Source of the DNA: Ostreococcus lucimarinus
Taxonomy: Eukaryota
NCBI GenBank assembly: GCA_000092065.1
Contig: CP000592.1
Reading direction: 5' to 3' (one strand)
Length of the DNA stretch: 64,000 nt
Shown: positions 2,348 to 62,707 of the stretch, piece after piece
Layout: every line of letters begins with the position of its first letter
Numbering within the stretch: the stretch's first letter is position 1
Position numbers and translations under genes: made by a program
Notes under the pieces: model-generated
The model's input: only the letters and a program-made list of their open reading frames with translations
What the model was told of the DNA's origin: nothing
Database searches by the model: none

Positions 2348-3904
2348 TCACACCGCGGCGCCGTATTGACGGGTTAAATCATTCGCCCTCGCGGATTCTA
2401 ACAGCGCGAAGCTCGAAGACCGCGGAACGTAGCCCGCTTCGGCGGCGTGAGACGTCGAAAGCGCGTGACGATCGCGCGCAGAGACGACTTCGGCGTCCCA
2501 ATCGAGACGGCGCGCGATGACGAAGCCGAGCGCGCCGGTGTGGACCACCGTGGCGACTAAACCGCCGAGAACGAGACCGAGGGCGCCCATGTGCGCACCG
2601 AAGGCTAATGCGAGCGATAGTGGAATACCTATGATCCAGTACGCGACGACGACGATTTTTGCGGCGAGCGATTGCTTACCGCACGCTCGCATCACGCCCG
2701 CTTGCACGGCGCCTGCGCAATCAAACAGCGCGTACGCCGCAAGCGCAATCATGAGCTCGGACACGAGCTCGCGCACCTCTTCACGCGAGGTGAACAAGTT
2801 TGCCCAATCTTTCCTCGCGACGATGATGCCCACGCTCGCGATGACGCCAACGCAGGCGATGAGTTGGAACGAGACGGCGACGGCGCGCCGCGCCCTCTTA
2901 GCGTTGCCGGCGCCGAGCTCGTGCGTTACGCGCGTCAACGACGCCACGCCGAGCCCGATCGACGCGTCGAACACGAACGCATTCGTACTGCCGTAAATAG
3001 ACAGCGCTGAGAGCGCAATCTCGGGATTCGGCAAGTATCCCGCCATTACTACCGTCATCTCGCTGGCCCACCACTCCATCTTCATAGCAACGCCCGGCAA
3101 CGCGAGCGCGAAGTATTCCCGCAATCCCTCCGTCGAGATCGCGCGTCGCAGTTGCCATCCTGGCCAGCACATATCGCGCTTGAGCGCCAACGCCTCGTCG
3201 CGTTCGCGAAACATTCTTCGCCAGACCGTCGCGTACGCCACCTGCGTAGCCAAACAAACCGCCGACGACGCGCTCCACGCCAACGCCGCGCCGATGACCC
3301 CGATCTCCCATCGCCACACGAAGTAATAGCACAAAATCGGATGCGCGATCGCCGCGAGCACGCCGCCCAACGCCTGCGGCCGCGTGATTCCCTGCGAATG
3401 CAAGTACGTCATCGTGCACTGCGTCCACGCGTAGCACAACACCCCCGGCGTCGCCGCTCGCAAAAATCGTCCCGCCTCGCGACTCACGCCCGCGTCTTGC
3501 CCCGTCGCCGCTAAAAATTCCTCACCCCTCGTCGCGAACACCGCGCACGTCAACGCCGCGTACGTCGTCGTCACCAAGAGCGCGCGTTGCGTCGTCTCTC
3601 CCACGCGCTCGTACGCCCCTAATCCGTACGCCGTACCGGCCAGCGTGTTCACCGCGCTCGCCAGTCCCACCAGCACCGATTTACACGCGATGTTTATCGT
3701 CGTCATCGCGAGCGCGGCGCCCGCGAGCTCGACCGTCGCGCGCGCTCGTCCGACGAAGACGAGCGTCACTAAATCTCTCAGCGTGTTCATCGTCATCGAC
3801 ACGCTCACCGGGATCGCGAGCGCGATCTGCGCCGCGCGCTCGACGCTCGCGCCGTCGTCGTCGTCGTCGTCGCCCGCCGCGCCGTCGCGATCGTCCGCGC
3901 CCAT
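2348..3904 (-). CDS. MATE (multidrug and toxic compound extrusion / DTX-type) efflux transporter.
   Basis: 518 aa with about 12 predicted TM helices. Typical MATE layout with an acidic N-terminus (DDDDDDG). The motifs LATQIQ..., VGLGVASLTRV and GNAKRARRA resemble eukaryotic MATE proteins. Confidence 0.75.
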   Translation of the reverse strand: MGADDRDGAAGDDDDDDGASVERAAQIALAIPVSVSMTMNTLRDLVTLVFVGRARATVELAGAALAMTTINIACKSVLVGLASAVNTLAGTAYGLGAYERVGETTQRALLVTTTYAALTCAVFATRGEEFLAATGQDAGVSREAGRFLRAATPGVLCYAWTQCTMTYLHSQGITRPQALGGVLAAIAHPILCYYFVWRWEIGVIGAALAWSASSAVCLATQVAYATVWRRMFRERDEALALKRDMCWPGWQLRRAISTEGLREYFALALPGVAMKMEWWASEMTVVMAGYLPNPEIALSALSIYGSTNAFVFDASIGLGVASLTRVTHELGAGNAKRARRAVAVSFQLIACVGVIASVGIIVARKDWANLFTSREEVRELVSELMIALAAYALFDCAGAVQAGVMRACGKQSLAAKIVVVAYWIIGIPLSLALAFGAHMGALGLVLGGLVATVVHTGALGFVIARRLDWDAEVVSARDRHALSTSHAAEAGYVPRSSSFALLESARANDLTRQYGAAV

Positions 3905-3926: not shown

Positions 3927-4643
3927 GTGCGGCGGCGTCGAGCGTCGACGTCGAATCGTCACTCGGCGCCGCTCGACGCGCGTCGCGACCGCGCGTCGTC
4001 TCGATCGCGCGACATGCGCGCGTCCACGTCCGCCGCGCCGCCGCGCGCGTCGTGGGCGCGTCGCGGCGCGTCGGCGCGCGCGCGAGCGCCGCGAACGCGC
4101 TCCGCCGCCGGTCGCGACGTCACGCGTCGCGGGCTTCACCGCCAGCCCGTCGCGCTCGGAGAGACGCTGCCGATGGACGTCCAGGTGTCGTACTTCGACG
4201 ACGACGGGAACCTGGTGCGGTGCGAGTTCGGGGATTTGCTGCGAGGGAAGACGGCGGTGGTGTTCGCGGTGCCCGGCGCGTTTACGCCGACGTGCTCGAC
4301 GAAACATTTGCCGGGATACGTCGAACGCGCGGACGCGATGCGCGAGCGCGGCGTGGATGAGGTGATTTGCGTGTCCGTGAACGATGCCTTCGTGATGAAC
4401 GCGTGGGGGAACAGCGCGGGAGCGAAGATGGCGAAAATTAAGATGGTCGCGGACGGGTCGGCGGCGTGGAGCAAGGCGTGCGGAGTGGATTTGGATCTTC
4501 ACGAGCAAGGGATGGGAACGCGCAGTCGCCGCTACGCGCTCATCGCGCGCGATGGGGTGATCGAGTACTTGGCCATGGAGTCGGGGCAAAAGTACGAGAC
4601 GAGTGGTGCGGCGGATATTTTGGAAAGGTTGCCGCTTCCGTGA
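3927..4643 (+). CDS. Peroxiredoxin, type II / Prx5 class, with an Arg/Ala/Ser-rich N-terminal extension that is probably an organellar transit peptide.
   Basis: Core sequence KTAVVFAVPGAFTPTCSTKHLPGYVERADAMRERGVDEVICVSVNDAFVMNAWG carries the PrxII/Prx5 signature with peroxidatic Cys in a TPTC context. The start codon is uncertain. The ORF begins 23 bp from the divergent MATE start. Confidence 0.8.
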   Translation: MRRRRASTSNRHSAPLDARRDRASSRSRDMRASTSAAPPRASWARRGASARARAPRTRSAAGRDVTRRGLHRQPVALGETLPMDVQVSYFDDDGNLVRCEFGDLLRGKTAVVFAVPGAFTPTCSTKHLPGYVERADAMRERGVDEVICVSVNDAFVMNAWGNSAGAKMAKIKMVADGSAAWSKACGVDLDLHEQGMGTRSRRYALIARDGVIEYLAMESGQKYETSGAADILERLPLP

Positions 4644-15924: not shown

Positions 15925-17268
15925 CTACTTGCGGTGCGCCGCGCCGATGGCGTCTTGCACACTCTTGAAACCGTCGCGCGCCAAGCACTCCTCGAGTTCT
16001 CGCTTGATTCTAGGTATCAAAGGCGGACCTTCGAAGGCAAACGCGGTGTACAACTGCACCAACGACGCGCCCGCGCGAATCTTTGCGTACGCGTCTTCGC
16101 CGCTGGCGATGCCGCCGCATCCCACCAAGGTGATTTTGCCGCCCGTGAGCTTGTACAGGTCGTGCAACACCTTAGTGCTCGGCTCCATGAGCGGTTTACC
16201 GCTCAGACCGCCCGCTTCGTCGCCGTGCGCGTGCGCTTTGATGGCGTCCGGTCGCGCGATGGTGGTGTTGCTCACGATGACTCCGTCGACCTTTTCGCTC
16301 TTCACCACGCTCGCGATATCCCTCAACGCGGCGTCGGTGAGATCGGGGGCGATTTTCACCAACACCGGCGTCTTCGCGGTGCCCGGATTTTTGTCGCGCG
16401 CGTCCAAAACCTTGCGCAGCAACCCGCTCAAATGCTTGCGACCTTGCAAGTTTCTCAAACCCGGCGTGTTCGGCGAGGAAATGTTCACGACGATGTAATC
16501 GCCGAATTCCCCGATATTCTCCACCCCCAAGACGTAATCATCCGCCGCGTTGTCTTCAGGAGTGAGCTTATTCTTCCCGAGATTTACGCCGAGCACCCCG
16601 CGCGGCTCCGCCGTCGCGTCGTCGCCCTCGGCGGCGACGGCGTCGCGCCGCCTCGCCAATCGCGTCCTCGCGCTCTCGTGTCCCTGGCTGTTGAACCCAT
16701 ACCGATTGATCACCGCCCCGTGTTCGCGCAGGCGGAACGCGCGCGGTTTCGGATTCCCCGGCTGCGGCTTCGGCGTCACGCTCCCGATCTCCACGAACCC
16801 GAATCCCACCCTCAGCAACGCCTCGAACGCCCTCGCGTCCTTATCGAATCCCGCCGCCAGACCGATCGGGTTCGAAAACGTCGTCCCGAGCGCCTCCACG
16901 CGCAGCGCCTCCCCGTCTCGCCGCCTTCGTCTCGGTCCCAGTCCCAGCGCGAGCGCCGCCACCGCGACGTCGTGCGCCGTCTCCGCGTCGAGCGCTCGCA
17001 GCGCCGGCGTCGCCGCGCCGTACGCCGCGAACTCCGCGTCCTCCGCCCAGTCTCCGTCCGCGAATCGCACCGCCGCCATCGCGCCGCAGACGCCGAGCGC
17101 GCCGGCCGCGAGCGTCGAGATTCCGCCTCGGCGCGCGCGCGGCGCCGTCGCGCAATCATCCGCCGCGCGCGACGCGAACGCGCGCGCGCCGTCGCTCGCG
17201 CCGCGATGGCGAACGGCGCGCAGCGCGATTTCGACGCCGCGACGCGCGGCGCGCCGACCGGCGTCCAT
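15925..17268 (-). CDS. DHODH: Dihydroorotate dehydrogenase (quinone), class 2, mitochondrial.
   Basis: N-terminal presequence plus membrane anchor, then a class-2 DHOD core. Motifs GLDKDA, GFGFVEIGSVTPKPQPGNPKPR, NRYGFNSQG, IIGVGGISSG-like LVGCGGIASGEDAY and a catalytic Ser region. Confidence 0.9.
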   Translation of the reverse strand: MDAGRRAARRGVEIALRAVRHRGASDGARAFASRAADDCATAPRARRGGISTLAAGALGVCGAMAAVRFADGDWAEDAEFAAYGAATPALRALDAETAHDVAVAALALGLGPRRRRRDGEALRVEALGTTFSNPIGLAAGFDKDARAFEALLRVGFGFVEIGSVTPKPQPGNPKPRAFRLREHGAVINRYGFNSQGHESARTRLARRRDAVAAEGDDATAEPRGVLGVNLGKNKLTPEDNAADDYVLGVENIGEFGDYIVVNISSPNTPGLRNLQGRKHLSGLLRKVLDARDKNPGTAKTPVLVKIAPDLTDAALRDIASVVKSEKVDGVIVSNTTIARPDAIKAHAHGDEAGGLSGKPLMEPSTKVLHDLYKLTGGKITLVGCGGIASGEDAYAKIRAGASLVQLYTAFAFEGPPLIPRIKRELEECLARDGFKSVQDAIGAAHRK

Positions 17269-17598
17269 GGCGACGCGACGCGCGACGGCGAGTGCGGCAC
17301 ATCGCGACGCGAACGCAGAGGTGCGACGGCGCGACGCGAACGCGCATCGCGAGGCGCGACGCGAACGCGATTCGCGAGAGGCGGTCGCGCGTCGCGACGT
17401 CGCGCCGCGTCCGCGCGCGACGCGGCGCGACGCGGCGCGACGCGCGAAAGATTATCCAAAGCGTCGACGTCGACGCGATGACGGCGGCGCGACGACGACG
17501 ACGACGACGACGGGACGACGACGAGAGACGAGGACTGACGATGATGGATGCCGCGCTCCGAACGCGACGCGCAGGCGCGACGCGAACGAATAATCGAG

Positions 17599-18312
17599 AT
17601 GTCGACGACGACGCGCGCGCTCGGGACGCGATCGGCGACGCTCGCGACGACGCGAGGACGCGCGGCGAGACGACGAGGCGGTGCGGTCAGAGCGGAGGGC
17701 GGCGACGCGAGCGCGTGGAAACCGATGGCGGTGACGAAACCGAACTTGGTGAATAATCTGGACGGGAAGACGACGCGAAACATCGATGGGAAGGTGTACA
17801 CGATCGAGGCGAGAGGGGACGAAGTCGCGGTGACGGATAAATTCGGGGCGTCGTTCGAGACGCGAGTGAACAAGGCGGGCGTGATCGAGGCGGACATGTC
17901 GAAGAAGACGGGCGCGAGCGCTGGGGATGACGTGGATTTTGCGTCGTTGCAAATCACCGATTTCGTTGGATTTAACGCCAAGTATAAGATTCCGGAGGTG
18001 GTGAACGGACGCGCGGCGATGGTGGGCGCCGTCTTGGCGTTGCTGTCGAAAATCGGCGGCGGCGGCTCGGTGGCGCATCAAATGTTCACCGCCGGCGGCT
18101 TCAGTTCCATGCTCTTCATCATGGCTGCCGTTACCGCGGCGACGATCGCGCCCGCGGCGACCGGCGCGACGTCTCTTCGCGGCGCCATTCCGGACGAGAA
18201 CGCCACGTTCCCGGACGAGCGCTTGCCCACGACGTGGACGGCGACCGCCGAGGGCGTCAACGGCAAGGTCGCCATGGTGATCCTCACCCTCGCGCTCATC
18301 ACGGGCAACTAA
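17599..18312 (+). CDS. Light-harvesting-complex-like (ELIP/SEP/LHC-like) protein with a plastid transit peptide, three predicted helices and two chlorophyll-binding E-x-x-N-G-R/K-x-A-M motifs.
   Basis: Motifs PEVVNGRAAMVG (helix 1) and AEGVNGKVAMVI (helix 3) with a hydrophobic helix 2 between them. An N-terminal soluble extension of about 110 aa is present. I chose the internal Met (MSTTTRALG...) as start. A gACTGAC...CAG intron-end-like sequence just upstream (~17530-17574) suggests a 5' intron. Confidence 0.6.
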   Translation: MSTTTRALGTRSATLATTRGRAARRRGGAVRAEGGDASAWKPMAVTKPNLVNNLDGKTTRNIDGKVYTIEARGDEVAVTDKFGASFETRVNKAGVIEADMSKKTGASAGDDVDFASLQITDFVGFNAKYKIPEVVNGRAAMVGAVLALLSKIGGGGSVAHQMFTAGGFSSMLFIMAAVTAATIAPAATGATSLRGAIPDENATFPDERLPTTWTATAEGVNGKVAMVILTLALITGN

Positions 18313-18444: not shown

Positions 18445-20013
18445 TTAGGACTGACGGTACCCTTGGCCGCCGTACTGCGCGTATTGCTGCGCGTACTGCG
18501 ACTGCTGGGTGTAGTAGCCTTGTTGTTGCATCTGCTGCTCGGTGTATTGAGCCGCGCGACCGTTGTTCTGACGCGCGCCGTTTTGATCGGATCCGTCTTG
18601 GGTCTTGTATCCCGGCGGAGCGCCTTGCTTGGCGCCCGGCGCCGCGGCATACGCCGGGGGGTACGCGGGAGGGTAGGCTTGCTGCACCGCGTACGGGTAC
18701 GCAGGTTGGTGCGGCATGGCGTAAGGGTAGGAGTACATGGGATGGCCATACGCGTTGGGCATGTTGGCGAACGCTTGTTGCGGCGCCGCGCTCGAGCCCG
18801 AAGTGGACTGCGTCTTGTCGCCGCCCGCTTGTTGGCTCTGCGCCGCGGCTTGTTGCTTGTAGTAATCCGCATACGCGTTGTTTTGATCAGCGGGTTGCGC
18901 CGATTGCTGGTAACCTTCGTAGCCAGTGTAGCCGCCCGCCATGGGCACCGCCGGAGGCATCATGTAGTTGCCGTAGGCGTTGGGCATCATACCGCCAAAG
19001 TACGCCGGGTACGCTGCTTGCTGCTCCGCGGCACCGCTCGTCGTCGTGCTGCCGTTGACGGCGTCCGGCAACTTGGAGGCCACACCAGAATTTCTGCTAG
19101 ATTGCTTCTTGTTCGCTTGCGGCTGTTGCTGCTGCACGCCCCAGCCCGCCGCCGAGCCGTTGACGGCTGAGGACGAATCAAATCCAAAGCCAAAGTCACC
19201 GCCTGAGGTGGAGAAGTTGCCAAACTGAAGGCCAAGATCTTGCGCTTGCGCGCGATCGTTCGCTTGCGCTTGCTGCGGTCGCGGCACCGCAGCAGCCTGC
19301 GCGGCGGCGTCGAAACCAAAGCCAAAGCTCTCGGCGGATTGTTGCTGCGCCGCCGCGGGTCGTTGCTGTTGCTGTTGCTGCTGCGCGGGAGGTTGCGCCG
19401 CCACCGGCGCCGCCGCCGCGGGCGCGGGCGCACCCGGACCCGCCACCTTCTTGGCCCAGTTCATCGTCGCCTCGGCCGCGCTCGCCGGCGCCGCAGCTTG
19501 TTTGGGCGCCGGCTTGCCGCCTTGCGGGCGCGGCACCGCGCCACCCTTGGCGCCGCCGCGACCAGCTTGCGGCGCCGCCGACGGCGCCGGAGCCGCCACC
19601 GCGGGCTCACCACGAACTAAATCAGCGAGTGTTTTCCCACCAGGCCGAATCGGCGCGGGATTCGGCGCCGGTTCGAGCTTCGCCGGCGCCGCCGAGGGCG
19701 CCGCCGCCGCCGCGGGCGCCGCCGCGGCTCTCGCCGGCTTCCCTCCGCGCTCATCCCCGCGCTCACCCGCGCGCGGCGTCGGGAACTTCCCACCATTCTC
19801 AAACTTCCCATTTCTCCCCGGCTTACCATCGCGCCCTTGACCGTCGTACGCGCGTCCGTTCGTCCGTTCCCCGCCGAACTTTCCGCCTCGTCGTTCGCCG
19901 CCGTCTCTGTTATTATGTTGATTCCCAACCTTACCCCCCGCCCCGCTCTGCGCCCCGTTCGCCGGCTTCTTCTTCTGTTTCTTTCCGATCGTCTCAAACT
20001 TATCCACTGTCAT
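18445..20013 (-). CDS. Intrinsically disordered Q/A/G/P/Y-rich protein with FGFGFD repeats (522 aa).
   Basis: Begins MTVDKFETIGKKQKKK. Gly/Arg-rich N-terminal quarter, long poly-Q, FG repeats and a YxxQQ-rich C-terminus. Prion-like or FG-nucleoporin-like low complexity. Function unknown. Confidence 0.4.
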   Translation of the reverse strand: MTVDKFETIGKKQKKKPANGAQSGAGGKVGNQHNNRDGGERRGGKFGGERTNGRAYDGQGRDGKPGRNGKFENGGKFPTPRAGERGDERGGKPARAAAAPAAAAAPSAAPAKLEPAPNPAPIRPGGKTLADLVRGEPAVAAPAPSAAPQAGRGGAKGGAVPRPQGGKPAPKQAAAPASAAEATMNWAKKVAGPGAPAPAAAAPVAAQPPAQQQQQQQRPAAAQQQSAESFGFGFDAAAQAAAVPRPQQAQANDRAQAQDLGLQFGNFSTSGGDFGFGFDSSSAVNGSAAGWGVQQQQPQANKKQSSRNSGVASKLPDAVNGSTTTSGAAEQQAAYPAYFGGMMPNAYGNYMMPPAVPMAGGYTGYEGYQQSAQPADQNNAYADYYKQQAAAQSQQAGGDKTQSTSGSSAAPQQAFANMPNAYGHPMYSYPYAMPHQPAYPYAVQQAYPPAYPPAYAAAPGAKQGAPPGYKTQDGSDQNGARQNNGRAAQYTEQQMQQQGYYTQQSQYAQQYAQYGGQGYRQS

Positions 20014-20596
20014 CGCGCGCGCTCAGTCGTCGTCAGTCGTCCGCGTCGTTCGCGTCGTCGCGCGTCGTCCCCATCCCTCGAGTCGCGATTCGTCAGCCGC
20101 CAAACGCGGCGGGGCCGCGATCGCCCGTCGTCCCATCGTCTACCGTCGCTCGCGCGTTCGCCGCGCCTCGCTCGCCCGTCCGCGCCGTCTCGTCGCACGC
20201 ACTGTTTAACAACCGATCGATCGCGCGATCGACGTCGCCGCCGCACGCGTCGAGGACGTCGGCGCAGTCTCGCTCGGCGTGCCCGCTCATCTGCGCGAGC
20301 GCCTTCGCGGACGTCATCTTTCGCGGTCCGCGAGCGGTGCGACGCGCGCGGCGGGTTCGCGCGCGGGTGACGCGGCGCGTGGATTTTTTTCTCGGCGGCG
20401 CGAGCGAGTCGAGCGACGCGGGAGGCGGCGCGCGCGCGTGTGCGGCGGCGCGCGCGCGCGCGAGGGCGTGACGTCTTTCGCGGGGCGCTACAATACGGAA
20501 CCATCCCTATGTACATCGCGGTGTCGATTTCGCGCGGGAAACTTTGGAATTTGGCTGGGTGGCTAGAGGGAGTTTGTTTTGTTTTAGGCGATCGTT

Positions 20597-21581
20597 TCAG
20601 GCGTCTCCGGGCGCGAGCGCGCGCATCGCGCACTCGTACGCGAAGAAACTGAGCGAACTCATCGGGATGGTTTTCACGGTCGTCGCGCGAAGGCCGGCGT
20701 AGAAACCGCGGAGACCGCGGTCGCGGAATAACGCGCGGGCGACGGCGAGAAAACCGCCGCGCTCGACGACCATTCGACGGGAGACGACGTCGAGGGGAAA
20801 GCTCACGGCTTGACCACACGCGGCGCTGATCATGCCGAACGCGAGGCTCGGAGCGGCGGCGGCGGCGGCGGAGCGAGCGGCGGACTTGGCGCGACGGCTG
20901 CGACGAAGACGCGCGTCAGTCGGACGAAAAAGCGACGAGGCGAAAGAGGACGCACCCGTACCAATCGCGCATTAAATCGTAACTCCCGAACGTGATCGCG
21001 GCCTCGGGAACGACGGCTATCGCCGCCGGTAACGCGCCTCGGTACAGGCCCCGCGCGCCTTCGTCGCGAAAAATTTTACGCAACCCGCGTCCCAAGCCGA
21101 GCGTCGCCGCGCTCGGCCCGCCCGTCGCCTGTCGCACCAGCAACGAGTCGAGCGGGTACAACAGCGCGAGCGACGACAATCCCGCGACCGCGCCCGAGAT
21201 CAGCGCGTCGCTCGCGCGCGCCGCGTTCGACGTCGACGTCCCCGCGGCGGCTCGAGCGCGCCGCAGCGCCTCCTTCACCGCGCCGAAGACCAAAAAGTTC
21301 AACCCTTTCGCGGGCGCGTGTCGCGCGACCGAGGCTTTGGTGCCGGCGAACAGCGCGGACGCGCCCTCGGTGCGATAGATGGCGCGCAGGGACGTGGATT
21401 CGTTGGAACCGCGACCCGTCATCACGCGCAGCCGTCGCACCTCCAACGGCTGCGTCGCGATCCGCGACACCGCGCCGGACGCGCATCCGGCGACGAAGCG
21501 CGCGGACGCGTTCGTCGTCGACGACGGCGCGTCGTCGCGCGAAGTCGACGACGGGGCGTCGACGACGCGCGAACGCGCCAT
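20597..21581 (-). CDS. Mitochondrial carrier family (SLC25) protein with two exons.
   Basis: Three carrier repeats with P-x-[DE]-x-x-[KR] signatures (PLEVRR, PLDSLL, PLDVVSRR). Exon 1 is ~21581..20956, ending ...RDWYG followed by GTGCGT. I place a micro-intron of about 58 nt with gACTGAC 16 nt before the CAG, and exon 2 at ~20897..20597. An alternative acceptor 63 nt downstream is also in frame. Confidence 0.65.
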
Positions 21582-21708
21582 GACGCGTCGAGCGAGTCGA
21601 CGAGTGCGGGACGAGGCGCCGCGTCGACGGGAAACGACGAGAAACGAGGCGCCTAAATGCGTCGCGGTTAAAAGAACGCGCGTGACGACGCTCGAAATCG
21701 TCGCGGCT

Positions 21709-22167
21709 TCACTTCTTCGGACGCAAAGCGACCTCGAGCTCGGCGCCGTCCGGGCCGTCGACGACGCACTGACACGATAACCGCCAACTCTCCTTCAACT
21801 TTCCAGCGCTGAGCTTTCGCGCCTCGGGGTCGGTGCGCTCGCTCAGAAATTCGCCGCCTCGGAGAACGTCGACGCCGCACGTGCCGCAGTTGCCCATGCC
21901 GCCGCAGTTGAGCAATTTGTTCACGCCCGCGTACAGCTCGCGCTTCGCGTCCAACGCGACGGTTCGCAGCACCTCCGGTTTCTCCACCGTCGTCGTCACC
22001 GGCGCCGATTTACCGTCCTCGGAGATGAACGTCACCTTTACGGCCGCGCGCGGCGTCGGCGCGCGCGCGGTGGAGGACGCGCGCGCGCGCGTTCGGCGGT
22101 GCCGGAAAGCGTCGCAGTTTGAGCGGGGACACGCGCGCGCGACGCGCGCGGCGGTGAAGCCGGGCAT
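21709..22167 (-). CDS. 2Fe-2S ferredoxin-like iron-sulfur protein with a plastid-type transit peptide.
   Basis: Cys cluster LNCGGMGNCGTCGVDV...RLSCQC at the C-terminus of a beta-grasp-like domain. Ala/Arg/Ser/Thr-rich N-terminal presequence. Confidence 0.5.
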   Translation of the reverse strand: MPGFTAARVARACPRSNCDAFRHRRTRARASSTARAPTPRAAVKVTFISEDGKSAPVTTTVEKPEVLRTVALDAKRELYAGVNKLLNCGGMGNCGTCGVDVLRGGEFLSERTDPEARKLSAGKLKESWRLSCQCVVDGPDGAELEVALRPKK

Positions 22168-29381: not shown

Positions 29382-29756
29382 GCGTTCGCGCCGCGCCGCG
29401 CGTCGCGCGCGCGACGATCGCGCGGCGCGCGTCGACGAGCGCGGACGACGACGACGACGACCGCGGCGTCAAAAAGCGACGCGGGATGGCGGACGCGACG
29501 ACGACGGCGACGACGGCGACGGCGACGGCGGGCGCGAGCGCGGGCGTGCCCGGGGCCAAGGTGCGCGCGACGGCGCGACGCGCGCGCGAGGAAAACCGAC
29601 GACGCGACGCGCGCGATCGCGTTGACTCGCGGGACGAACGTCCGGTCGACGTCGAAACGACGAACGACGACGACGCGCGCGCGCGAGCGCGCGAGAGACT
29701 GACGTGCGACGCGTCGGACGCATACGCGATAGTTCATCGAGGACGTCGCGGCGCAC

Positions 29757-30233
29757 GTGGGCGAGCGCGCGATCGATGAGGTCATGGAGGAGATGCGCGC
29801 GCGGTACGGACGATACAAACGCCTCGAGGCGGAGCTGCAGCAGGCGCGGATACGACTCTCGACGCAGCTGCCGGACGTGCGGCGATCGCTCGAGGCCGTG
29901 GAGACGCTGTGTGAGAAGCGCGATCGCGGCGACGCGAGCGGGACGACGGTGAAGTATCAGTTGACCGAGGCGACGTTCGCGGAGGCGACGGTGGAGACGC
30001 CGGAGAGCGCGTACCTGTGGCTCGGGGCGAACGTGATGCTGGAGTACACGCTGGACGAGGCGAAGGAACTGTTGGAGACGAACGTGACGGCGTGCGAGAG
30101 CGGGCTGGAGGCGAACGCGAGGGATTTGGCGGTTTTGAAGGACAACGCGACAATCATGGAGGTGAACATGGCGCGCGTGTATAATTTCGACGTCAAGCGC
30201 CAGCGCGAGCGCGAGGCGGCGGCGGCGAAGTGA
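29757..30233 (+). CDS. PFD3: Prefoldin subunit 3 (VBP1-like, alpha-class prefoldin).
   Basis: Two coiled-coil arms flank the beta hairpin (TVKYQLTEATFAEATVETPESAYLWLGANVMLEY), which is the characteristic PFD3 layout. 158 aa. A short 5' exon is possible. Confidence 0.7.
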   Translation: MGERAIDEVMEEMRARYGRYKRLEAELQQARIRLSTQLPDVRRSLEAVETLCEKRDRGDASGTTVKYQLTEATFAEATVETPESAYLWLGANVMLEYTLDEAKELLETNVTACESGLEANARDLAVLKDNATIMEVNMARVYNFDVKRQREREAAAAK

Positions 30234-40625: not shown

Positions 40626-41026
40626 CCGGCGTCGGATGCGGCGTCGCGCGCGTGTGCCGCGGCGACGCGGACCGACGCGGCGCGACGGCGCGCGCGCGAT
40701 CGTTTTTTATTTTTCCGTCGTCCGCGTTTTGAGACGCATTCGAGCACCGCGAACGGGGATGAAGCGCGACGCCATCTGGCTCCGAATGTCCGAATATTCC
40801 CGTATGCGCAAACAGTGACGCCCCGATCACCGCGCGCCAACCGCCCGGATACGCATCGGCGCCCGCGTCGCGCGACGCCGCGCGCGCGCGACCGCACACC
40901 CGCGCGCCCCGTCGTCGAACGCCGCACCAGAATGTTCACCATCACCGCCTCCGCCGTGAAGCCCGTCGCGGCTAGTCAAACGCCGCGCGCGAACGCGCGA
41001 AAGTCCGCCGAGGCGTACGTTATCTG

Positions 41027-41581
41027 ATGCGTATCAACGTCGCGGATCGCGCGCGAAAGCGCGTCGACGCGTCGGCGCGCGCGGCGCGGCGCGCGAACGC
41101 GCTCGACGCGCGATGGGACGCGCGAACGATGGGTCGAAATACGCGGCGCGGGAATCGCGCGGCGCGGCGGGCGAGCGCGACGGCGACGCGACGCGGCGAC
41201 GGGACGCGCGCGATCGGACGAGAAACCGCGGGACGGGGGCGCGCAAGATGTGGAGTGACTGACGAGGGGACGATTTTCGATGCGAACAGTGCGTTCGTCG
41301 CGCCGGTCGCCGCGACGGCGATGGCGATCTTGCTCGCCGGTCCGGCGCACGCCGGTGAAGGCGGACGCCTGGGCTTGGAGCTCAAGAACGGCACTGGTTT
41401 GGCGCCGGGCAAGTACGAGCAACCCTTTTACGATCCGCGACCGGTGGTGACCGTGCAAACGGACGGCCCGGGTGACGTGACCAAGGACGAGGCGCGAATC
41501 TTGCCGAACAGACAAATCGGACCGGGTGCGTGCAAGCTCATCACCGGTGCGCCGTGCGTTGACTTCCAATCCGGCAAGTAA
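41027..41581 (+). CDS. Small Cys-containing protein with a bipartite presequence that looks like thylakoid-lumen targeting.
   Basis: Arg-rich transit region, then hydrophobic FVAPVAATAMAILLAGPAHA with an AxA cleavage motif. The mature part is about 75 aa and ends GACKLITGAPCVDFQSGK. Identity unknown. Confidence 0.4.
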   Translation: MRINVADRARKRVDASARAARRANALDARWDARTMGRNTRRGNRAARRASATATRRGDGTRAIGRETAGRGRARCGVTDEGTIFDANSAFVAPVAATAMAILLAGPAHAGEGGRLGLELKNGTGLAPGKYEQPFYDPRPVVTVQTDGPGDVTKDEARILPNRQIGPGACKLITGAPCVDFQSGK

Positions 41582-43898: not shown

Positions 43899-45126
43899 AT
43901 GAATCGCGGACGCGGCAAGGACTTCTACGCCGCCCTCGGGCTGCAGCGCGGCGCGGACGAGAACGACGTGCGCAAGGCGTACAGGAAACTCGCGATGAAG
44001 TGGCACCCGGTGCGTGGACGCGCGCGACGCGCGAAGCGATCGAGCGGCGATGATGGACATCTGATGAAGACGAATGAAACGCGACGCGCGACGCGCGCGA
44101 CGCGCGAACGACGCGCGCGAGACGGCGAAACGACGCTCGATGATGGTGATGTTCGCGCGGGACGCTGACCGAACGACGCGCGCGCGACGCCGAACGCGAG
44201 CGCAGGATAAAAACCCCGACGACAAGGATGGACGCGCGGAGAAGAAGTTTAAAGAAGTCTCCGAGGCGTACGAAGTGCTGTCGGATCCGAAGAAGAAGGA
44301 GCTGTACGACACGTACGGCGAGGATGGATTAAAAGATGGGGGCGGGATGCCGGGAGGAGGGTTCTCGGCGCAGCACGCGGAGGATATATTCGCGAATTTT
44401 TTCGGCGGCGGCGGCGGCGGGTTTCCGGGGGGCGGCGGCTTCGGCGGCGGATTTCCGGGAGGCGGCGGATTTCCGGGAGGCGGGGGATTCGGCGGACATC
44501 CTGGGTTCGGTGGAATGCCGGGTGGTGGTGGGTTCGGGGGACAGGATTTTCGCGAGCCGCCGCAGAAACAGCGTAAGAAGGCGCCGAAGATTGAGCAGAC
44601 GCTCAGGCTGTCGCTCGAGGAGCTGTTTTACGGAACGCAAAAGAATTTCAGCGTCACGCGAAAGGTGATTCGAAACGGTCGGCAGGAGAGCGTGCAAGAG
44701 ACGCTTCCGATCGATGTTAAGCCCGGGTGGAAGAGCGGGACGAAGATTACGTTTCAGGAGAAAGGGGACGAAACCCCGACGACGATCGCCGCCGACATCG
44801 TCTTCACGTTGGAGCAAAAACCGCACCCGCAGTTTGAGCGCGAGGGCAACGATCTCGTGAAGACGGTCAAGGTTGATTTGAACGAAGCCTTACTCGGAAC
44901 GTCGTTCAGCGTGTACACCTTGGACGGGAAGGCGATGGACGTCAAGGTCGACGACATCATCTCCCCGACCTTCGTCAAGGTGTTGCCGGGCGAAGGCATG
45001 CCGCTGAGCAAGTCCCCCGGCGAGCGCGGCGACTTGAAGATCAAGTTTCACATTCGTTTCCCGAAATCGCTCGGCGACGACCAAAGGAACGCTTTGCGCG
45101 ACGCGCTCGCGGGCGCGACGTATTGA
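43899..45126 (+). CDS. DNAJ: DnaJ/Hsp40 (type II/B, G/F-rich), two exons.
   Basis: Exon 1 is 43899..44009 (J-domain helices I-II ...[10 protein letters not shown]). Intron 44010..44205 runs GTGCGT...gCTGAC...CAG. Exon 2 is 44206..45126 and starts DKNPDDKD, completing the HPD motif, then the G/F region and the C-terminal substrate-binding domain. The frames check against the ORF track. Confidence 0.85.
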
Positions 45127-45377: not shown

Positions 45378-45683
45378 TTACTTCTCCGGGCGCATGCCCA
45401 AGCCCTTGCCCTTGAGCACGGCGGCTTCGTTCGTCTTCTTGTCGCCTCGCTTCTTCGACTTATCGTAGTACTCTTGCGAGAAACCACCCGAGACGTTACC
45501 CTCGGACGACGACTTGACGTACAAGACGATCAAAAACGCCGTCGGAATGATGATGAAGAGCGCCGTCGCGATGACGCCCAAAATGTTCACGTCCGCGAGC
45601 GCGACTTGCTCGAGCGCTTCGCTCGCCGCGAACGCCGGCGCGGCGATCGCCGCCGGCGTCGCCGCGACCGCGGTCGTTCGCAC
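45378..45683 (-). CDS. psbM: Nuclear-encoded photosystem II PsbM-like protein with an N-terminal targeting presequence and a Lys-rich C-terminal extension.
   Basis: Mature core [32 protein letters not shown] closely matches plastid PsbM ([29 protein letters not shown]...). It is preceded by [30 protein letters not shown], which is transit- and AxA-like. Confidence 0.6.
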
Positions 45684-46210
45684 TTTTTGCTGCGCCTTCG
45701 TCGTCGTCGCCGCCTGTCGTTCGCGCGCGTGCTTCGTCGTCAGTCACCCCTCACTGTTTCCCCATACGATTATCCACGATCGATCGCGAATCCCGCGCGC
45801 AAAGATACGCCCCGTCCGCGTCCCCGATCGATCGATCGATCGTGCCTCGACGCGCGCGTTCGCCCGCACGCGCGTCGACGTCGCTACCGACGCGCGACGG
45901 TCCGCGCGTCGTCGCGCGCGCGCGATCGATCGTCGTCGTCGCGCGTCGTCGCCGTCGTTCGTTCGTTCGTCGCGCGTCGTCGCGGTCGATCGTCGTCATC
46001 GCGTCGTTCGTCGCGATCGCGCGCGGTCGTCGCGTCGGTCGCGTCGCGGTCGCACCTTGGGCGCGACGACGCGCTTGGTCGCGGTTCGCCGCGTCGCGGC
46101 GCGCGCCGCGAGCGGGATCAATCCGGTGTTCAACGCGAGGACGGCCATGGCGCGCGCGAGTGTGCCGATCGCGCGATCGCGCGTCGATCGCGCGGGGGCG
46201 CGGGGCGTAC

Positions 46211-50321: not shown

Positions 50322-51001
50322 CGCGCCCTGCGTCGTCGACGAAAACCCAATCCCCGCGCGCGTTCGTCAGTCCTCATTCGCTCCCGTCTCATCCGTCCGA
50401 TCGTCTTTTCGCCGCCCGCGCGACTTCCGACGTCCTCGGCGTCGCCGCGTCGCAAACCCCACACCCGATCCCCACGCGCGATCGATCGCCGTCGCCGCTC
50501 GCCCTCGTCGCGCCTCGCGCGCGTCCCCCCGTCCCGTCGTTCGATCGCGCGATATCTTTCGCGCGTCGCGCGCGATCGCGAACCGCCGTCGCGCGTTCGC
50601 GCGCGTCGCGCGCGCGGTTTTTCGCGTCGCCCCCGCGACCGGTCGCGCGTCGCGCGATCGCATCCCTCTCGCACCTTTCGCGCGCCGAGCGTCGCGCGCG
50701 CGGCGCGGCGCAGCGCCGTGGACATCGCGAACGTTTTCGCGCGTCCGCGGAAGCGCGCTTCCGGCGACGCGAGACGTCGCGTCGCGGTCTGGCGACGTCA
50801 GACGCGACGACGTCAAGACGCGCGACGGAATCGACACTCGACGACGCGCGCGCGCGCGCGCGCGCCGGAGCGCGCGCGCCGTCTCGCGCGGGTCGCCGAC
50901 GCGCGCCGGCGCGCGCGACGGCGGACCGCGCGACGGCGCGGACGCGATCGAGAAACGCATCGCGCGTCGAAAAACGCATCTCTGTCGTGGGCTAAAAATA
51001 C

Positions 51002-55723: not shown

Positions 55724-56473
55724 CGGGCGCGCGGCACCTCGGATCGAATCGGCGGGTGCGTGTGGGTAAACAGTGCGACGTGGATATTTTCTGACGTCCG
55801 TGTGTTAATTTTGGTCGGTCGCCGGGGGGGGTCTCACGGTTTTCGTGTTGAGTTTTTCGTTTTTCGCCGATCGGCGATCTCGAGCGCGCGCGCGGTGGGG
55901 GGGGGTGGAAAAGGGAACGAAAGGAAAAAAGGGCGATGCATTCACGTACATCGAGGTTTTTAAGCGCCTAATCGCGAGCGGCGATGCGATGACGCGATAA
56001 TTGAGGGGTGCATTTTGTGAATGTATAGGTTTTCGACTCTTAAAGTACCGACACGGCGTCAAAAGTACCCGTAACGTTCGCGCCGTGACCCCGCGTGGTG
56101 CGCGGCTAAAGGGTCGTGCGTCACGTGGTGTTATCAAGCGACCACACCCGCGGAAAATCACAGAAACCCATCGGAACTTCTCAGTTAAGACCGCGTGGGC
56201 CGGATAAGTACCGATGTCGGAAGACGTCAGGAACCCCCGGTATCGCTTGGTTTCTTTATGCTTTTCGCGCCGACGGCGAGAACTTTTCGTTCTCCAGCTT
56301 TTCCCAACTTTTCGTCGACATCGGACGCGATTTAAGCGCCCGAACGGTGGACTTTGCACATTTGACGCGCTTCGCGTCGACGGCGCTCGACGGTTCGCGA
56401 ACGATTTCAAGCGTCAACCTTCGATGCGTGCCGCGGCATACATTTACATACATTTACATAACATTACACGTTT

Positions 56474-57626: not shown

Positions 57627-57767
57627 ATGGCGAGCGGATTCGGCGCGCGCGGGAGCGAGGGGCGATGCGCGCCGGTCTGGCGCGAGTTCACCAAGGTGCG
57701 CGCGCGCGCGAGGCGCGCGCGAGGGCGCGCGGACGCGCGACGAGCCCTAAACGATCGACGCGAACGA

Positions 57768-57810
<43 letters not shown>

Positions 57811-58086
57811 CGAACGCGCGAGCGCGAATCGAACGACGAGAGACTGACGAACGACGACGACGCGCAGTGCGTGAACGAGGCGGACGATCGAAGCGCGTGC
57901 TTTAAGTTTCGCGAGGATTACGTGGAGTGCTTGCACCACAAGAAGGAGTATCGACGCGAGAACGAGATCGAGAACGAACGGCAGAGAAGGAACGAGGAGC
58001 ACGCGAACGCGAAGAAGGAGGCGTTGTTGAAGGAGATGCGGACGTTTAGTTGGGTGACGGATGAGAAGTACGCGCCGAAGAAGTAG
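57627..58086 (+). CDS. NDUFS5: Complex I subunit NDUFS5-like (15 kDa, twin Cx9C / CHCH), two exons.
   Basis: Exon 1 is 57627..57695: MASGFGARGSEGRCAPVWREFTK. Compare plant MASGWG..GRCYDFWMDFSEC. Intron 57696..57867 runs GTGCGC...(GAC)n...aGACTGAC...CAG. Exon 2 is 57868..58086 and contains CVNEADDRSACFKFREDYVECLHHKKEY; compare plant C..DCTLLREDYLECLHHSKEF. Joining the exons restores the Cx9C pairs. Confidence 0.75.
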
Positions 58087-58234: not shown

Positions 58235-59503
58235 CTACTGACGCTTCGCGCGCTTGGCGTCGTGTCTCGCGGGCTTCGCCTCGTCGTCGGGCGGTTTGTC
58301 GCCCTCGTGCGTGATCTTACGGTGTGGATACACGATTCTGTGCTCGCCAGCGGCGAGTTCGTAATCAAATATGTTCCTCGTCGGCTCCGGTTCGGTCTTG
58401 GCGAAGTAATCCATGGCCGTGAGCGCCTCGAACGCCGTCGGACGTCGCTCGGGGTCGTACGCGCAGAGCTCGTCGAAGACGGCGGCGAGTTCGGGATCGC
58501 TCCGCATCGGCGAGCTTTCGTCCGCGGGAACGCCCTCGGGGTGCTCGGGCGGATAAAAGAACTTCTTCGCGCGTTCGTAATACGGATGTTCCCTGAGCAA
58601 AGGCCACGTCTCTTCGCTCGGCGTGCCTTTGCATCTCACGATGGCTTCGATTTGCTCCTCTTGGTACATCGTTCTCGGGTCCTCCTTACCCTTCGGCACG
58701 CCCTTGAACGGCACGACGAGCGTGCAGAGTTCGGCGAAAATGCACCCAGCGGCCCAAATGTCGACCGCACGCGTGTAATGTCGCGCCCCGAGCAACAGCT
58801 CGGGCGCGCGATACCACAAAGTCACCACTGGTCCGTTTTCGTGCAACGGCTTGAGCAAAGTCCCCGGGTCCACGAACCGCGCCAAACCGAAATCGGCAAT
58901 CTTCACCACCCCGCACTCGCTCCCATCGCCCATCACGAGCACGTTTTGCGGCTTTATGTCCCTGTGCATGATCCAATTCGAGTGCAAATAATGCAATCCG
59001 TGCAACAACTGCCACGTCGCGCTCTTCACCATCCGTCTCGACACCAACCGTCGATGCCTTCGATGCCACGTCAATATCACCCCCAAATCGTACTCCGCGT
59101 AATCTATCGCCAACGACAGCGACCGTTCCTCCTTATTCACGATCACCCGGTGCAAGTGCACGATGTTTTCGTGCTTCATCGCTCGCAGCGTCGTCACCTC
59201 GCGAAACGTCGGCGTCGGCAGTCCCACGACTTGATCCCTCGCGATCGCCCCCGTCTTCGCGTCCCGTCGCACGGGCGGCGTCTTGAACGTCTTAATCGCG
59301 TACACTCGACCTGCATCAAGCGCGCGCGCGCGCGTCCCGTCAGTCCTCGCGCCCTCGTCGCGTCCTCGCGCGCCCTCGTCGTTCGATCGCGTCGCGAATC
59401 ATCCGTCGCGCCGCGCCTCGCGCGCACCCGCCGTCGTCCGCGCGTACATCACGCGTCCGAACGCGCCCTCCCCGATCTGTCCCACGATCTCGCCGTCGTC
59501 CAT
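58235..59503 (-). CDS. CDK8: Cyclin-dependent kinase 8-like (Mediator kinase module CDK8/CDKE), two exons.
   Basis: Exon 1 is 59503..~59428: MDDGEIVGQIGEGAFGRVMYARTTAG (Gly loop). The intron is about 117 nt: GTGCGC...gGACTGAC...CAG. Exon 2 is ~59310..58235: ...YAIKTFK..., PTPTFREVTTLRAMKHENIV (compare SACREIALLREL), HRDIKPQN, KIADFGLAR and WYRAPELLLGARHYT. The ORF track starts exon 2 at a GTG codon. Confidence 0.75.
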
Positions 59504-59678
59504 CGCCGCGCGCGCGCGCGCGCCGCGCGTCGACGTCGAGTGCCGCGCGTCGATCGAATCCGCACTCGGCGTCGCGCGGCGTCCGTCGCGTCGTCTCGCG
59601 CGCGTCGTCGACGGCGTCTCGACGCGCGCGATCGCGGCGCGCCGATCCGACGCGTCGACGCGCGATCGCGAGCGCGCG

Positions 59679-60670
59679 ATGAGCGACGCGGAGGACGAAG
59701 ATCTCACCGCGATCGTCGAGGCGGGCGAGGACGCGGTCGACCGGAGCGTGCACCCGAGCGGGATCGTGCCGGTGCTGCAGTGCGTGTCGAGCGAGGCGAA
59801 AACCCGCGCGCACTCGCGCGCGGCGCTCGACGCGCGGAAGAGCGCGGCGTCGGGGAGGCGCGGCGAGGGAATTCATTCGGCGCGGAATTCAATTGGCGCG
59901 ACGCATTCGGCGCGCGCGGGAAGCGGCGCGGACGAAGGCGAAGCGAGCGTCGCGAGGGCGATGGACTGACGACGCGATGCGCGCGCGTAGGAATATCGTG
60001 GCGACGGTGAACCTGGACTGTAAGCTGGATCTGAAGACGATCGCGTTTCACGCGAGAAACGTCGAGTATAATCCAAAGGTGCGGCAACCCTAAGGCGACG
60101 CGGCGAGAGACGCGCGAAACGCGCGCGATGGGTGCGACGATGACTGACGACGAACGACGGTGGTTTGAATGCGCGTAGCGATTCGCGGCGGCGATCATGC
60201 GGATTCGTAATCCGAAGACGACGGCGTTGATTTTCAGCTCGGGCAAGATGGTGTGCACGGGCGCGAAGACGGAGGCGTTGGCGCGCGAGGCGGCGCGAAA
60301 ATACGCCAAGGTCATCATCAAGCTCGGATTTCCCGCGCAATTCAAAGACTTTAAGATTCAAAACATGGTCGGTTCGTGCGACGTGCAGTTTCCGATTCGA
60401 TTGGAAGGCTTGGCTTGGCAGCACGGCCACTTCGCGCAGTACGAGCCCGAACTCTTTCCGGGTTTGATTTACCGCATGCAAATGCCCAAGATTGTGCTCT
60501 TAATCTTCGTGTCGGGGAAGATTGTGTTGACCGGCGGCAAGCGTCGCGAGGATATATACCAGGCGTTCGAGAATATATACCCCGTGCTCACAGAGTTTAA
60601 AAAGCTCGCGCAGCCGGACGAAGCCGCCGCGGCGCCCAAGGCGCTCCCGGCGGCCAAGGGGAAAAAATAG
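59679..60670 (+). CDS. TBP: TATA-box-binding protein (TBP), three exons.
   Basis: Exons are 59679..59779 (...SGIVPVLQ), 59991..60078 ([29 protein letters not shown]) and 60179..60670 ([32 protein letters not shown]...second repeat). Both introns begin GTGCG(T/G) and carry GACTGACGACG 19-29 nt before (C/T)AG. The frames check against three ORF-track entries. Confidence 0.85.
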
Positions 60671-61173: not shown

Positions 61174-62707
61174 ATGCTCACGTTGACGCGCACGCAAATC
61201 ACGCTCCCCGCCCGCGCGCCCGCGCGCGCGAGGCGCACGGCGCGCACGGCGCAAAGCGCGCGCGTCATCGCGCGCGCGCGGACGTCCGCGGTCGTCGAGG
61301 ATGAATTCGCGACGGACGACGACGTCGTCAGACGAGGACAGGTGCGCGCGAACGACCGCGGGCGCGATGCGCAAGAATTCGATGCGTCGCGCGGTAGGAC
61401 GCGCGAACGCGCGCGGGCGTCGATGGACGCGCGAGGGCGACGAAGCGATCGATCGGACGGGGGTGCGATCGATATCTGGATAAATGGCGCGCGCTGGAAA
61501 ACGACGCGTTCGGTCGAACGCTGACGGCGATGCGACGCGTGAGGGCGGAGAAAGGGCGAAAGGTAAAATGTGTGAACGAATGACTGACGACGTGACGCGC
61601 GATGCGGTGCTTTCGCGATCGTAGACGGCGGCTATGGCGACGGCGGCTTCCATGTTTTTCGCGGATCGCGCCGACGCGGCGCAAGAGTTGATGCAAACCG
61701 CGCTCGATGGACGCCCGCTCATCTTCTTGGCGGTGTTTGGACCGGTCTTGGGTTGGGTGGCGTATAACATTCTCTCCCCGGGGTTGAGACAGCTTGAAAA
61801 CATGCAAGCGGTGAACGCAAAGTCGAGCAAGAAGCGCGCCGCCGGCGCGCTGGCGGGCGGCTTGACGGCGAGTGCCTTGATGGGCATGCCGGAAGCGTCT
61901 GATGCGGCTCAAAACGTTGCGGATCTTGCCGGCATCGATGGCCGCATCGCCATCTTTTTTGTGTTCGCCCCGGTTCTCGGCTGGGTGGCGTACAACATTC
62001 TCGGCCCGGGTCTTCGTCAGTTCGAAGACATGCAAAAGGCTGCCGCGAAGAAGAAGGGTGTGCTCGCGGGTGCGGGTCTCTCGGCTGCCGCTTTGATGGG
62101 CATGCCGGAAGCCTCCGACGCTGCGGAACAGCTCGGTGAGCTCGCCGGCATCGATGGCCGCATCGCCATCTTTTTTGTGTTCGCCCCGGTTCTCGGCTGG
62201 GTGGCGTACAACATTCTCGGCCCGGGTCTTCGTCAGTTCGAAGACATGCAAAAGGCTGCCGCGAAGAAGAAGGGTGTGCTCGCGGGTGCGGGTCTCTCGG
62301 CTGCCGCTTTGATGGGCATGCCGGAAGCGTCTGATGCGGCTCAAGAAATTGGCACCCTCGCTGGCATCGATGGCCGCATCGCCATCTTTTTTGTGTTCGC
62401 CCCGGTTCTCGGCTGGGTGGCGTACAACATTCTCGGCCCGGGTCTTCGTCAGTTCGAAGACATGCAAAAGGCTGCCGCGAAGAAGAAGGGTGTGCTCGCG
62501 GGTGCGGGTCTCTCGGCTGCCGCTTTGATGGGCATGCCGGAAGCCTCCGACGCTGCGGAACAGCTCGGTGAGCTCGCCGGCATCGATGGCCGCATCGCCA
62601 TCTTTTTTGTGTTCGCCCCGGTTCTCGGCTGGGTGGCGTACAACATTCTCGGCCCGGGTCTTCGTCAGTTCGAAGACATGCAAAAGGCTGCCGCGAAGAA
62701 GAAGTAG
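61174..62707 (+). CDS. psbY: Photosystem II PsbY polyprotein precursor with five tandem PsbY units, preceded by a transit-peptide exon.
   Basis: Exon 1 is 61174..61341: MLTLTRTQITLPARAPARARRTARTAQSARVIARARTSAVVED...RRGQ. Intron 61342..61624 runs GTGCGCG...aTGACTGAC...GTAG. Exon 2 is 61625..62707 and carries five units: x-F-x-x-A/F-x-P-V-L-G-W-V-A-Y-N-I-L-x-P-G-L-R-Q-x-E-(N/D)-M-Q, each followed by a spacer with an AxA site. Confidence 0.75.

Follow-up and report, generated by a model that had tools for sequence, protein, structure and literature searches.

The introns in a 64,000-nucleotide (nt) stretch of Ostreococcus lucimarinus contig CP000592.1 (assembly GCA_000092065.1; this whole stretch is called the window below) are very probably ordinary U2-type (GT-AG) spliceosomal introns with strict signals, belonging to the intron-poor, non-outlier genome of this species. 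The original prediction, which was made from the sequence alone, named seven introns in six genes, described all of them as starting with GTGCG followed by T, C or G and as carrying (G)ACTGAC(G) shortly before the acceptor, and proposed that they follow a lineage-specific splice-site grammar and may mark a single propagated intron family. All seven introns exist where they had been placed, with lengths of 58-283 nt as described; five of the six gene products are identical to deposited proteins, and in the sixth, DnaJ, splicing restores the J domain. Our census comprises twelve introns (Table 1), the seven named earlier and five more that were reached by following each ACTGAC site in the window. 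The proposal of a lineage-specific grammar was right, far beyond chance, and it had already been published for this genome, since the consensus sequences of donor, branch box and acceptor and the branch-to-acceptor spacing in O. lucimarinus were described in 2008 (Irimia and Roy 2008, PMC2483917).

Splicing itself is supported indirectly for the TBP gene by an identical transcriptome-derived protein, and has been shown for the species by published expressed sequence tags (ESTs). Both TBP introns were read directly; their branch regions read GGACTGACG in intron 1 and ATGACTGACG in intron 2. Removal of the two introns yields a 226-aa TBP that is unbroken across ...VPVLQ/NIVATV... and ...EYNPK/RFAAA... 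and is identical to the deposited XP_001420584.1 and to the protein derived from an MMETSP transcriptome. A Logan contig from a close relative (L001) carries a TBP open reading frame (ORF) that is continuous over both junctions, and the positions of both introns are kept in O. tauri, in a contig from an uncultured relative (L002) and, at identical codons, in Micromonas commoda, for which a collinear intron-less Logan contig shows the TBP introns spliced. As a separate observation, gene callers of the prokaryotic style begin ORFs within the introns when applied to metagenome assemblies: protein P0003 (L002, 376-915) starts MTDAC... at the ATG of the branch box ATGACTGACG, and public catalogues hence hold truncated or chimeric N-termini for genes with such introns.

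The remaining introns named in the original prediction are likewise bounded by protein evidence. The spliced CDK8/11-like kinase is identical to XP_001420750.1, with the Pkinase profile spanning the junction, and the O. tauri orthologue of this intron was found. The spliced NDUFS5 product is XP_001420583.1, and the O. tauri NDUFS5 intron is 122 nt long with GTGCGT and GACTGACG. Splicing of DnaJ extends the Pfam DnaJ match from profile positions 31-63 in the unspliced ORF to 1-63 of 63 (E-value 1.7e-27). The spliced PsbY polyprotein is XP_001420585.1, and its O. tauri intron is 270 nt long with donor GTACGT and box TGACTGACG. The spliced SLC25 mitochondrial carrier is XP_001420738.1, splicing having yielded the third Mito_carr repeat, for a total of three. 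Together with psbM, which is described below, six spliced models (TBP, CDK8, NDUFS5, PsbY, SLC25 and psbM) are identical letter for letter to deposited proteins of O. lucimarinus CCE9901.

Five further introns lie in genes for a prefoldin, NDUFS1 (the 75-kDa subunit of complex I), a nuclear-encoded psbM, a UBA/GIP1_N-like protein and a small protein of the thylakoid-lumen type. The spliced psbM product is XP_001420746.1. The psbM gene (45378-46148, minus strand) is nuclear here and usually a chloroplast gene, as the deposited annotation already says. In the lumenal-protein gene the transcript-catalogue protein P0349 (full coverage at 98% identity) reads straight through the junction ...RKSAEA/AFVAP..., which supports splicing indirectly, and the N-terminal part encoded by exon 1 is also present in P0362, an MMETSP protein of O. 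mediterraneus (full coverage at 64% identity); otherwise this gene is covered only by prokaryote-style ORF calls of 77-184 aa in metagenome and Logan assemblies. For the genes other than TBP and this one, removal of the intron from the mRNA is backed by the deposited annotation or by the reading frame. The GIP1_N profile crosses the junction of the UBA-like gene at a score below the Pfam cut-off (25.8 vs 26.4 bits), the gene range of the O. tauri orthologue exceeds its coding sequence by ~215 nt, and on another Ostreococcus contig (L018) the UBA exon is called separately. For prefoldin the deposited protein, XP_001420573.1, is marked 'partial', is 157 aa long and lacks exon 1; the putative intron, as judged from frame continuity and splice signals, would supply the missing first exon. 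An intron in NDUFS1, after a short presequence exon, is likewise suggested by its signals and by the reading frame, and no exact match to NDUFS1 was found in the public collection for either the spliced or the unspliced form. The spliced products of the DnaJ, prefoldin, NDUFS1, UBA-like and lumenal-protein genes were not found in the public protein collection. Alternative donors at 61463 (PsbY), 45869 (psbM) and 20198/20246 (UBA-like) were considered and rejected on the grounds of reading frame, the lack of a start codon or the O. tauri orthologue.

Table 1. Introns of the window, with their splice signals. A slash marks the exon/intron junction; distances run from the presumed branch A to the acceptor AG.
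Intron	Position	Strand	Length (nt)	Phase	Donor	Branch box	Acceptor	Branch A to AG (nt)	Flanking features
TBP, intron 1	59780-59990	+	211	2	GCA/GTGCGTGT (GTGCGT)	TGGACTGACGACG	GCGCGTAG (ends GTAG)	21	
TBP, intron 2	60079-60178	+	100		AAG/GTGCGGCA (GTGCGG)	ATGACTGACGACG	GCGCGTAG (ends GTAG)	31	
CDK8/11-like kinase	59311-59427	-	117	1	CGG/GTGCGCGC	AGGACTGACGGG	TGATGCAG	29	exon 1, 59428-59503
NDUFS5	57696-57867	+	172	0	AAG/GTGCGCGC	GAGACTGACGAAC	ACGCGCAG	20	
DnaJ	44010-44205	+	196	0	GTGCGTGG	GACGCTGACCGAA (CTGAC, not ACTGAC)	GAGCGCAG	37	divides J domain at WHP/DKNP
PsbY polyprotein	61342-61624	+	283	0	CAG/GTGCGCGC	ATGACTGACGACG	GATCGTAG	37	follows transit-peptide exon 61174-61341
SLC25 mitochondrial carrier	20898-20955	-	58	2	CGG/GTGCGTCC	CCGACTGACGCGC	CGTCGCAG	18	
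Prefoldin (putative)	29561-29732	+	172	0	AAG/GTGCGCGC	GAGACTGACGTGC	CGCGATAG	30	exon 1, 29486-29560 (MADATTT...GVPGAK); continues 29733-30233
NDUFS1 (putative)	50328-50674	-	347	0	AAG/GTGCGAGA	AGGACTGACGAAC	CGACGCAG	39	follows 51-nt presequence exon 50675-50725, MSTALRRAARATLGARK
psbM, nuclear	45714-46055	-	342	0	AAG/GTGCGACC	GTGACTGACGACG	AACGACAG	26	follows transit-peptide exon 46056-46148
UBA/GIP1_N-like protein	20007-20202	-	196	1	ACA/GTGCGTGC	ACGACTGACGACG	GATGACAG	26	
Small thylakoid-lumen-type protein	41015-41289	+	275	2	GTACGT	GTGACTGACGAGG	GCGAACAG	27	ATG 40932; gene to ~41581
ELIP/LHC-like, candidate 5' untranslated intron	17321-17574	+			GTGCGA (17321) or GTGCGG (17292)	GAGGACTGACGATG (from 17530)	CGCGCAG (ends 17574)	36	ATG 17599

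The signals are uniform, with two departures. All twelve introns are of the GT-AG kind and eleven open with GTGCG, including all seven named in the original prediction; the lumenal-protein intron starts GTACGT, which makes GTGCG strongly preferred but not obligatory, and position +6 can be A as well as the T, C or G that had been described. CTGAC is present in all twelve and the full box GACTGACG in eleven; DnaJ has GCTGACC, and the ACTGAC that had been claimed for every named intron therefore holds for six of the seven. Every acceptor is YAG with a purine at -4, seven of the twelve having C at -5, and the branch A lies 18-39 nt from the AG. Lengths range over 58-347 nt, eleven of the introns being 100-347 nt long. 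No pyrimidine tract separates the branch box from the acceptor, the pyrimidine content of this segment being 0.31-0.48 in ten of the eleven introns measured (all but that of the lumenal-protein gene). The introns are 62-75% G+C, and their sense strands are poor in T (9.8% vs 18% for the window) and 41% G, with runs of (GAC)n and GCGCGA, for example in 57696-57867 and 50328-50674; only the SLC25 intron, of 58 nt, is rich in T. Nine of the twelve are first introns, ~170 nt or less from the start codon and often directly after an exon for a targeting peptide, so that the tendency of these short introns to follow a first exon encoding an N-terminus or transit peptide, noted from the outset, is real. 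Such a 5'-biased placement is typical of intron-poor genomes.

The branch box is concentrated in the introns and does not occur there at a background rate. On both strands of the window there are 24 ACTGAC and 14 GACTGACG sites, and eleven of each fall in the sense strand of an intron (2,469 nt in all). The density of ACTGAC is thus 4.5 per kb in introns vs 0.10 per kb outside (binomial p 3e-13), and that of GACTGACG 4.5 vs 0.024 per kb, a difference of ~180-fold (binomial p 5e-17); over 128 kb of strand, three of the 14 sites of this 8-mer belong to neither an intron nor a candidate intron. Neither ACTGAC nor GACTGACG occurs on the antisense strand of the eleven introns checked. Six of the seven homology-defined introns have ACTGAC in a 30-nt zone, for which the chance is ~1e-14, and all seven homology-defined donors are GTGCG (p ~1e-10, given a probability of 0.038 for GCG after GT). 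The bare ACTGACG is only about two-fold above shuffled sequence (22 vs 9.5), and a loose composite of GTGCG, ACTGAC and YAG was found 11 times vs 3.2 +/- 1.6 in dinucleotide shuffles. The composite count was dropped as evidence because commoner permuted hexamers (TCGAAC, CATCGA) give an equal raw count, and enrichment was instead measured as density within homology-defined introns. The splice signal resides in the position of the box and not in its total count. The other ACTGAC sites (5591, 14932, 18450, 21768, 22895, 24336, 54962, 58237 and four copies in the PsbY repeat) were set aside as chance matches, since most either fall within a well-supported coding ORF or face one on the opposite strand, and most have no upstream donor; the site at 18450 is found where the 3' ends of the ELIP-like and UBA-like genes converge. 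The four copies in the PsbY polyprotein (61625-62707, plus strand), which has five PsbY units, are identical antisense ACTGACG matches that arise from a near-perfect 216-nt tandem repeat.

It had also been suggested that the motif can be used to find hidden 5' exons, for example upstream of an LHC-like gene. The five further introns make the first part plausible, and conserved signals in three species do the same for the upstream exon of the LHC-like gene. The ORF concerned (17599-18312) matches, at 100% identity, the deposited 'possible early light inducible protein [Ostreococcus lucimarinus CCE9901]'. In the orthologous region of O. tauri (L008), AAAG/GTGCGT at 3737 is followed by GTGACTGACGATG at 3969-3981 (ACTGAC core at 3972) and then by AAG/ATG, and in a contig of a third Ostreococcus (L016) GTGCG is followed by GGGACTGACGG and then by CAG/ATG. 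In all three species GTGCG stands 228-242 nt upstream of the box between diverged flanks, and an AG lies 24-36 nt after the branch A and at most 24 nt before the ATG. Because this arrangement of donor and box recurs amid diverged sequence in three species, we favour the view that the candidate intron is real, with reasonable though limited confidence. It would probably lie in the 5' untranslated region (UTR), with a non-coding first exon, because the deposited and transcript-derived proteins start MSTTT. The fuller proposition, that the conserved GACTGACG box marks a real and apparently unannotated 5'-UTR intron common to at least three Ostreococcus species, is one towards which we lean slightly; if it is true, the first exon abuts or overlaps the divergently transcribed DHODH gene. 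A coding hidden exon, beginning at the ATG at 17207 in frame with the donor at 17321 (MANGAQ...), was judged less likely, as it would be antisense to the N-terminus of DHODH and the known proteins start MSTTT. Prokaryote-style calls of a 254-aa ELIP start at 17548, a few nt past the box.

Alternatively, the GACTGACGATG box (17530-17543) could be a conserved promoter or 5'-UTR element, such as a TGACG-type bZIP site in a light-induced gene, or a chance occurrence, and there would then be no hidden exon. We regard this as the less probable account, one that still deserves serious attention: the deposited ELIP protein begins at 17599 and requires no upstream coding exon, the divergent DHODH gene has its start codon at 17268, just 23-52 nt from the candidate donors, so that exon 1 would be tiny or overlapping, the AGs that follow the box in O. 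tauri are GAG and AAG only, with no YAG, and three GACTGACG sites of the window fall outside introns and candidates. Five Logan contigs of unspecified sample type have their starts at 17481-17495, on the downstream side of both donors, and are collinear through the box; however, they set out from within a (GAC)n microsatellite, the kind of sequence at which assemblies break, and do not prove a transcription start. The JGI contigs L007 and L021 begin too far 3' to bear on the question. Against a regulatory or chance box stands its recurrence with GTGCG and with the same AG spacing in three species despite the divergence of the flanks.

A uniform set of signals could also be the mark of a mobile, self-propagating family, and the original prediction raised this possibility. 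The introns would then be copies of one introner-like element, as known from Micromonas pusilla CCMP1545, and would have inherited GTGCG and GACTGACG from their common source. An extended donor and an 8-nt branch box that recur from intron to intron do superficially resemble family-specific termini, the IE-C introner elements of Micromonas commoda bear an identical GACTGACG box (PMC3879977), and the bodies are alike in composition, being rich in G and A, poor in T and marked by CG repeats. When the donor and the branch box were removed and the bodies were compared pairwise (66 pairs), however, only short, low-complexity local matches were found, the best scores of 28-29.5 coming from the (GAC)n and GCGCGA runs; against dinucleotide shuffles the median z was 0.7, and the five of 66 pairs with z > 3 all involved (GAC)n or GCGCGA. 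The lengths also vary, from 58 to 347 nt. All five introns that were compared lie at orthologous positions in O. tauri, where the bodies have diverged and the donor, box and YAG are kept, and TBP introns 1 and 2 and the PsbY intron are also orthologously placed on L002, again with diverged bodies. Since O. tauri has all five at orthologous positions and Micromonas has two of them, the compared introns predate these species. The proposal of a single propagated family thus fails on both unalignable bodies and orthologous positions, and we consider it highly improbable.

The introns are ancient, and their signals have been conserved or drawn toward the consensus in place. The donor of TBP intron 2 (60079-60084, with orthologues on L004, L002 and L005) is GTGAG in O. 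tauri and Micromonas commoda and GTGCG in O. lucimarinus and L002. This difference between species at one position, which indicates that the consensus was reached by point change and not by insertion, looks like an in-place substitution by which an old intron of fixed position approached the lineage consensus. If so, the change from GTGAG to GTGCG is a direct case of signal convergence by substitution and not by loss of non-conforming introns. On this model the intron bodies would drift freely, with selection holding the signals or pulling them toward the consensus.

Ordinary U2-type splicing of these introns would make use of an extended 5' splice site, AG/GTGCGY, as donor and of the near-invariant box GACTGACG, the penultimate A of which is the presumed branch point. 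The box would presumably be bound by SF1/BBP and then paired with the GUAGUA box of the U2 small nuclear RNA (snRNA), leaving the penultimate A bulged; both the branch nucleotide and the binding factors are deduced here from general splicing knowledge. The acceptor would be the first suitable YAG 18-39 nt downstream, with a purine at -4 and usually C at -5. With no pyrimidine tract ahead of the acceptor, most of the recognition of the 3' end seems to fall to the branch box. ACUGAC pairs with the standard GUAGUA box of U2 with one G-U wobble, which weighs against any need for a second splicing machinery.

That the GTGCG/GACTGACG introns form a distinct class, comparable to U12-type introns and served by a second, lineage-specific spliceosome or by compensatory snRNAs, is a possibility that was raised by Irimia and Roy 2008 (PMC2483917) and that draws on the failure of C at donor position +4 to pair with the standard U1 5' end, but it is exceedingly improbable, as a search of five Mamiellales genomes yielded one strong U1 candidate apiece, its pairing region of the standard kind (bioRxiv 10.1101/2022.06.08.495308), the GT-AG termini are unlike U12-type signals (neither the U12-type donor RTATCCTT nor the branch box TCCTTAAC is found in any of the introns), and an Rfam scan of the window revealed no snRNA gene.

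Three points weigh against the assignment of all these introns to a uniform set of ordinary U2-type introns. The C at donor position +4 is a mismatch to the standard U1 5' end. The putative NDUFS1 and prefoldin introns are proposed from reading frame and splice signals only. The census was mainly led by the motif, so that introns without both signals may be missed and the uniformity may be overstated.

The window is part of a normal (non-outlier) chromosome of O. lucimarinus, outside the low-G+C region of chromosome 2, as follows from the 100% match of the ELIP-like ORF and from the six spliced models that equal deposited CCE9901 proteins. It is eukaryotic and gene-dense, with a G+C content of 0.52-0.70, and is syntenic with the O. 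tauri record CAID01000012.2. The window introns do not fit the BOC1 type of the outlier region of chromosome 2 (40-65 nt, low G+C, a weak donor and no recognisable branch motif), since eleven of the twelve are 100-347 nt long and all are 62-75% G+C with strong signals. Like the window introns, the introns of hemiascomycete yeasts have a 5'-biased position.

Irimia and Roy described 319 EST-confirmed O. lucimarinus introns outside chromosome 2, of which 87% have ACTGAC and 66.5% GACTGACG, with an 'atypical consensus GTGCGTG', the acceptor CGCAG (C at -5, purine at -4) and a branch-to-AG distance that peaks at 20-35 nt (PMC2483917). The window introns come from the same species and genome and match these in donor, box, spacing and acceptor; to the published picture they add individual cases and two exceptions, the GTACGT donor and the GCTGACC box, which are within the published frequencies of 87% and 66.5%. 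In Micromonas, Verhelst et al. 2013 (PMC3879977) described canonical introns with AG/GTGCGT and NCTGAC and cited GACTGACG as the extended Ostreococcus branch sequence. The two genera thus have AG/GTGCGT and NCTGAC in common, and TBP introns 1 and 2 occupy identical positions in M. commoda. The Micromonas branch motifs, however, lie 43-52 nt from the acceptor (PMC3879977), whereas the spacing in O. lucimarinus is shorter, and pyrimidines are abundant at the 3' ends of the M. commoda TBP introns, unlike in the O. lucimarinus introns with their lack of a pyrimidine tract. The Micromonas introner elements (IE-A to IE-D; Worden 2009, Verhelst 2013, Simmons 2015) are also spliceosomal and have GYGCGT donors, IE-C with GACTGACG, but they are alignable, recently gained repeat families, whereas the window introns are unalignable and positionally ancient. 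The introns of hemiascomycete yeasts (GTATGT and TACTAAC) follow the same principle, with few introns, a near-invariant donor and branch site and a constrained branch-to-AG distance (PMC2483917); the consensus words differ, being GTGCGT and GACTGACG here, the context here is rich in G+C, and the origin is independent (convergent). A 2022 preprint (10.1101/2022.06.08.495308) presents GYGCGY donors as a trait of the Mamiellales and reports that the U1 pairing region is unchanged in five species. The most interesting mechanistic follow-up, a compensating U1 snRNA, has therefore already been tested, with a negative outcome. The practical value of the signals lies in annotation: GACTGACG is rare outside introns and so shows where older O. 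lucimarinus gene models lack a first exon, the deposited partial prefoldin and the small lumenal protein being examples for model repair.

Two observations concern neighbouring genes. The Rfam scan of the window found only a full-length 5S rRNA gene (56134-56251, plus strand; RF00001, 71 bits), which sits in the gap that follows the 5'-nucleotidase gene, ~1.4 kb before NDUFS5. The SLC25 carrier gene and a 2Fe-2S ferredoxin gene (together ~20597-22167, minus strand) sit between the UBA-like and prenyltransferase genes, and neither gene is present in the matching interval of O. tauri or of two further Ostreococcus contigs (L008, L016 and L018 were compared); the difference is a two-gene insertion or deletion between the species.

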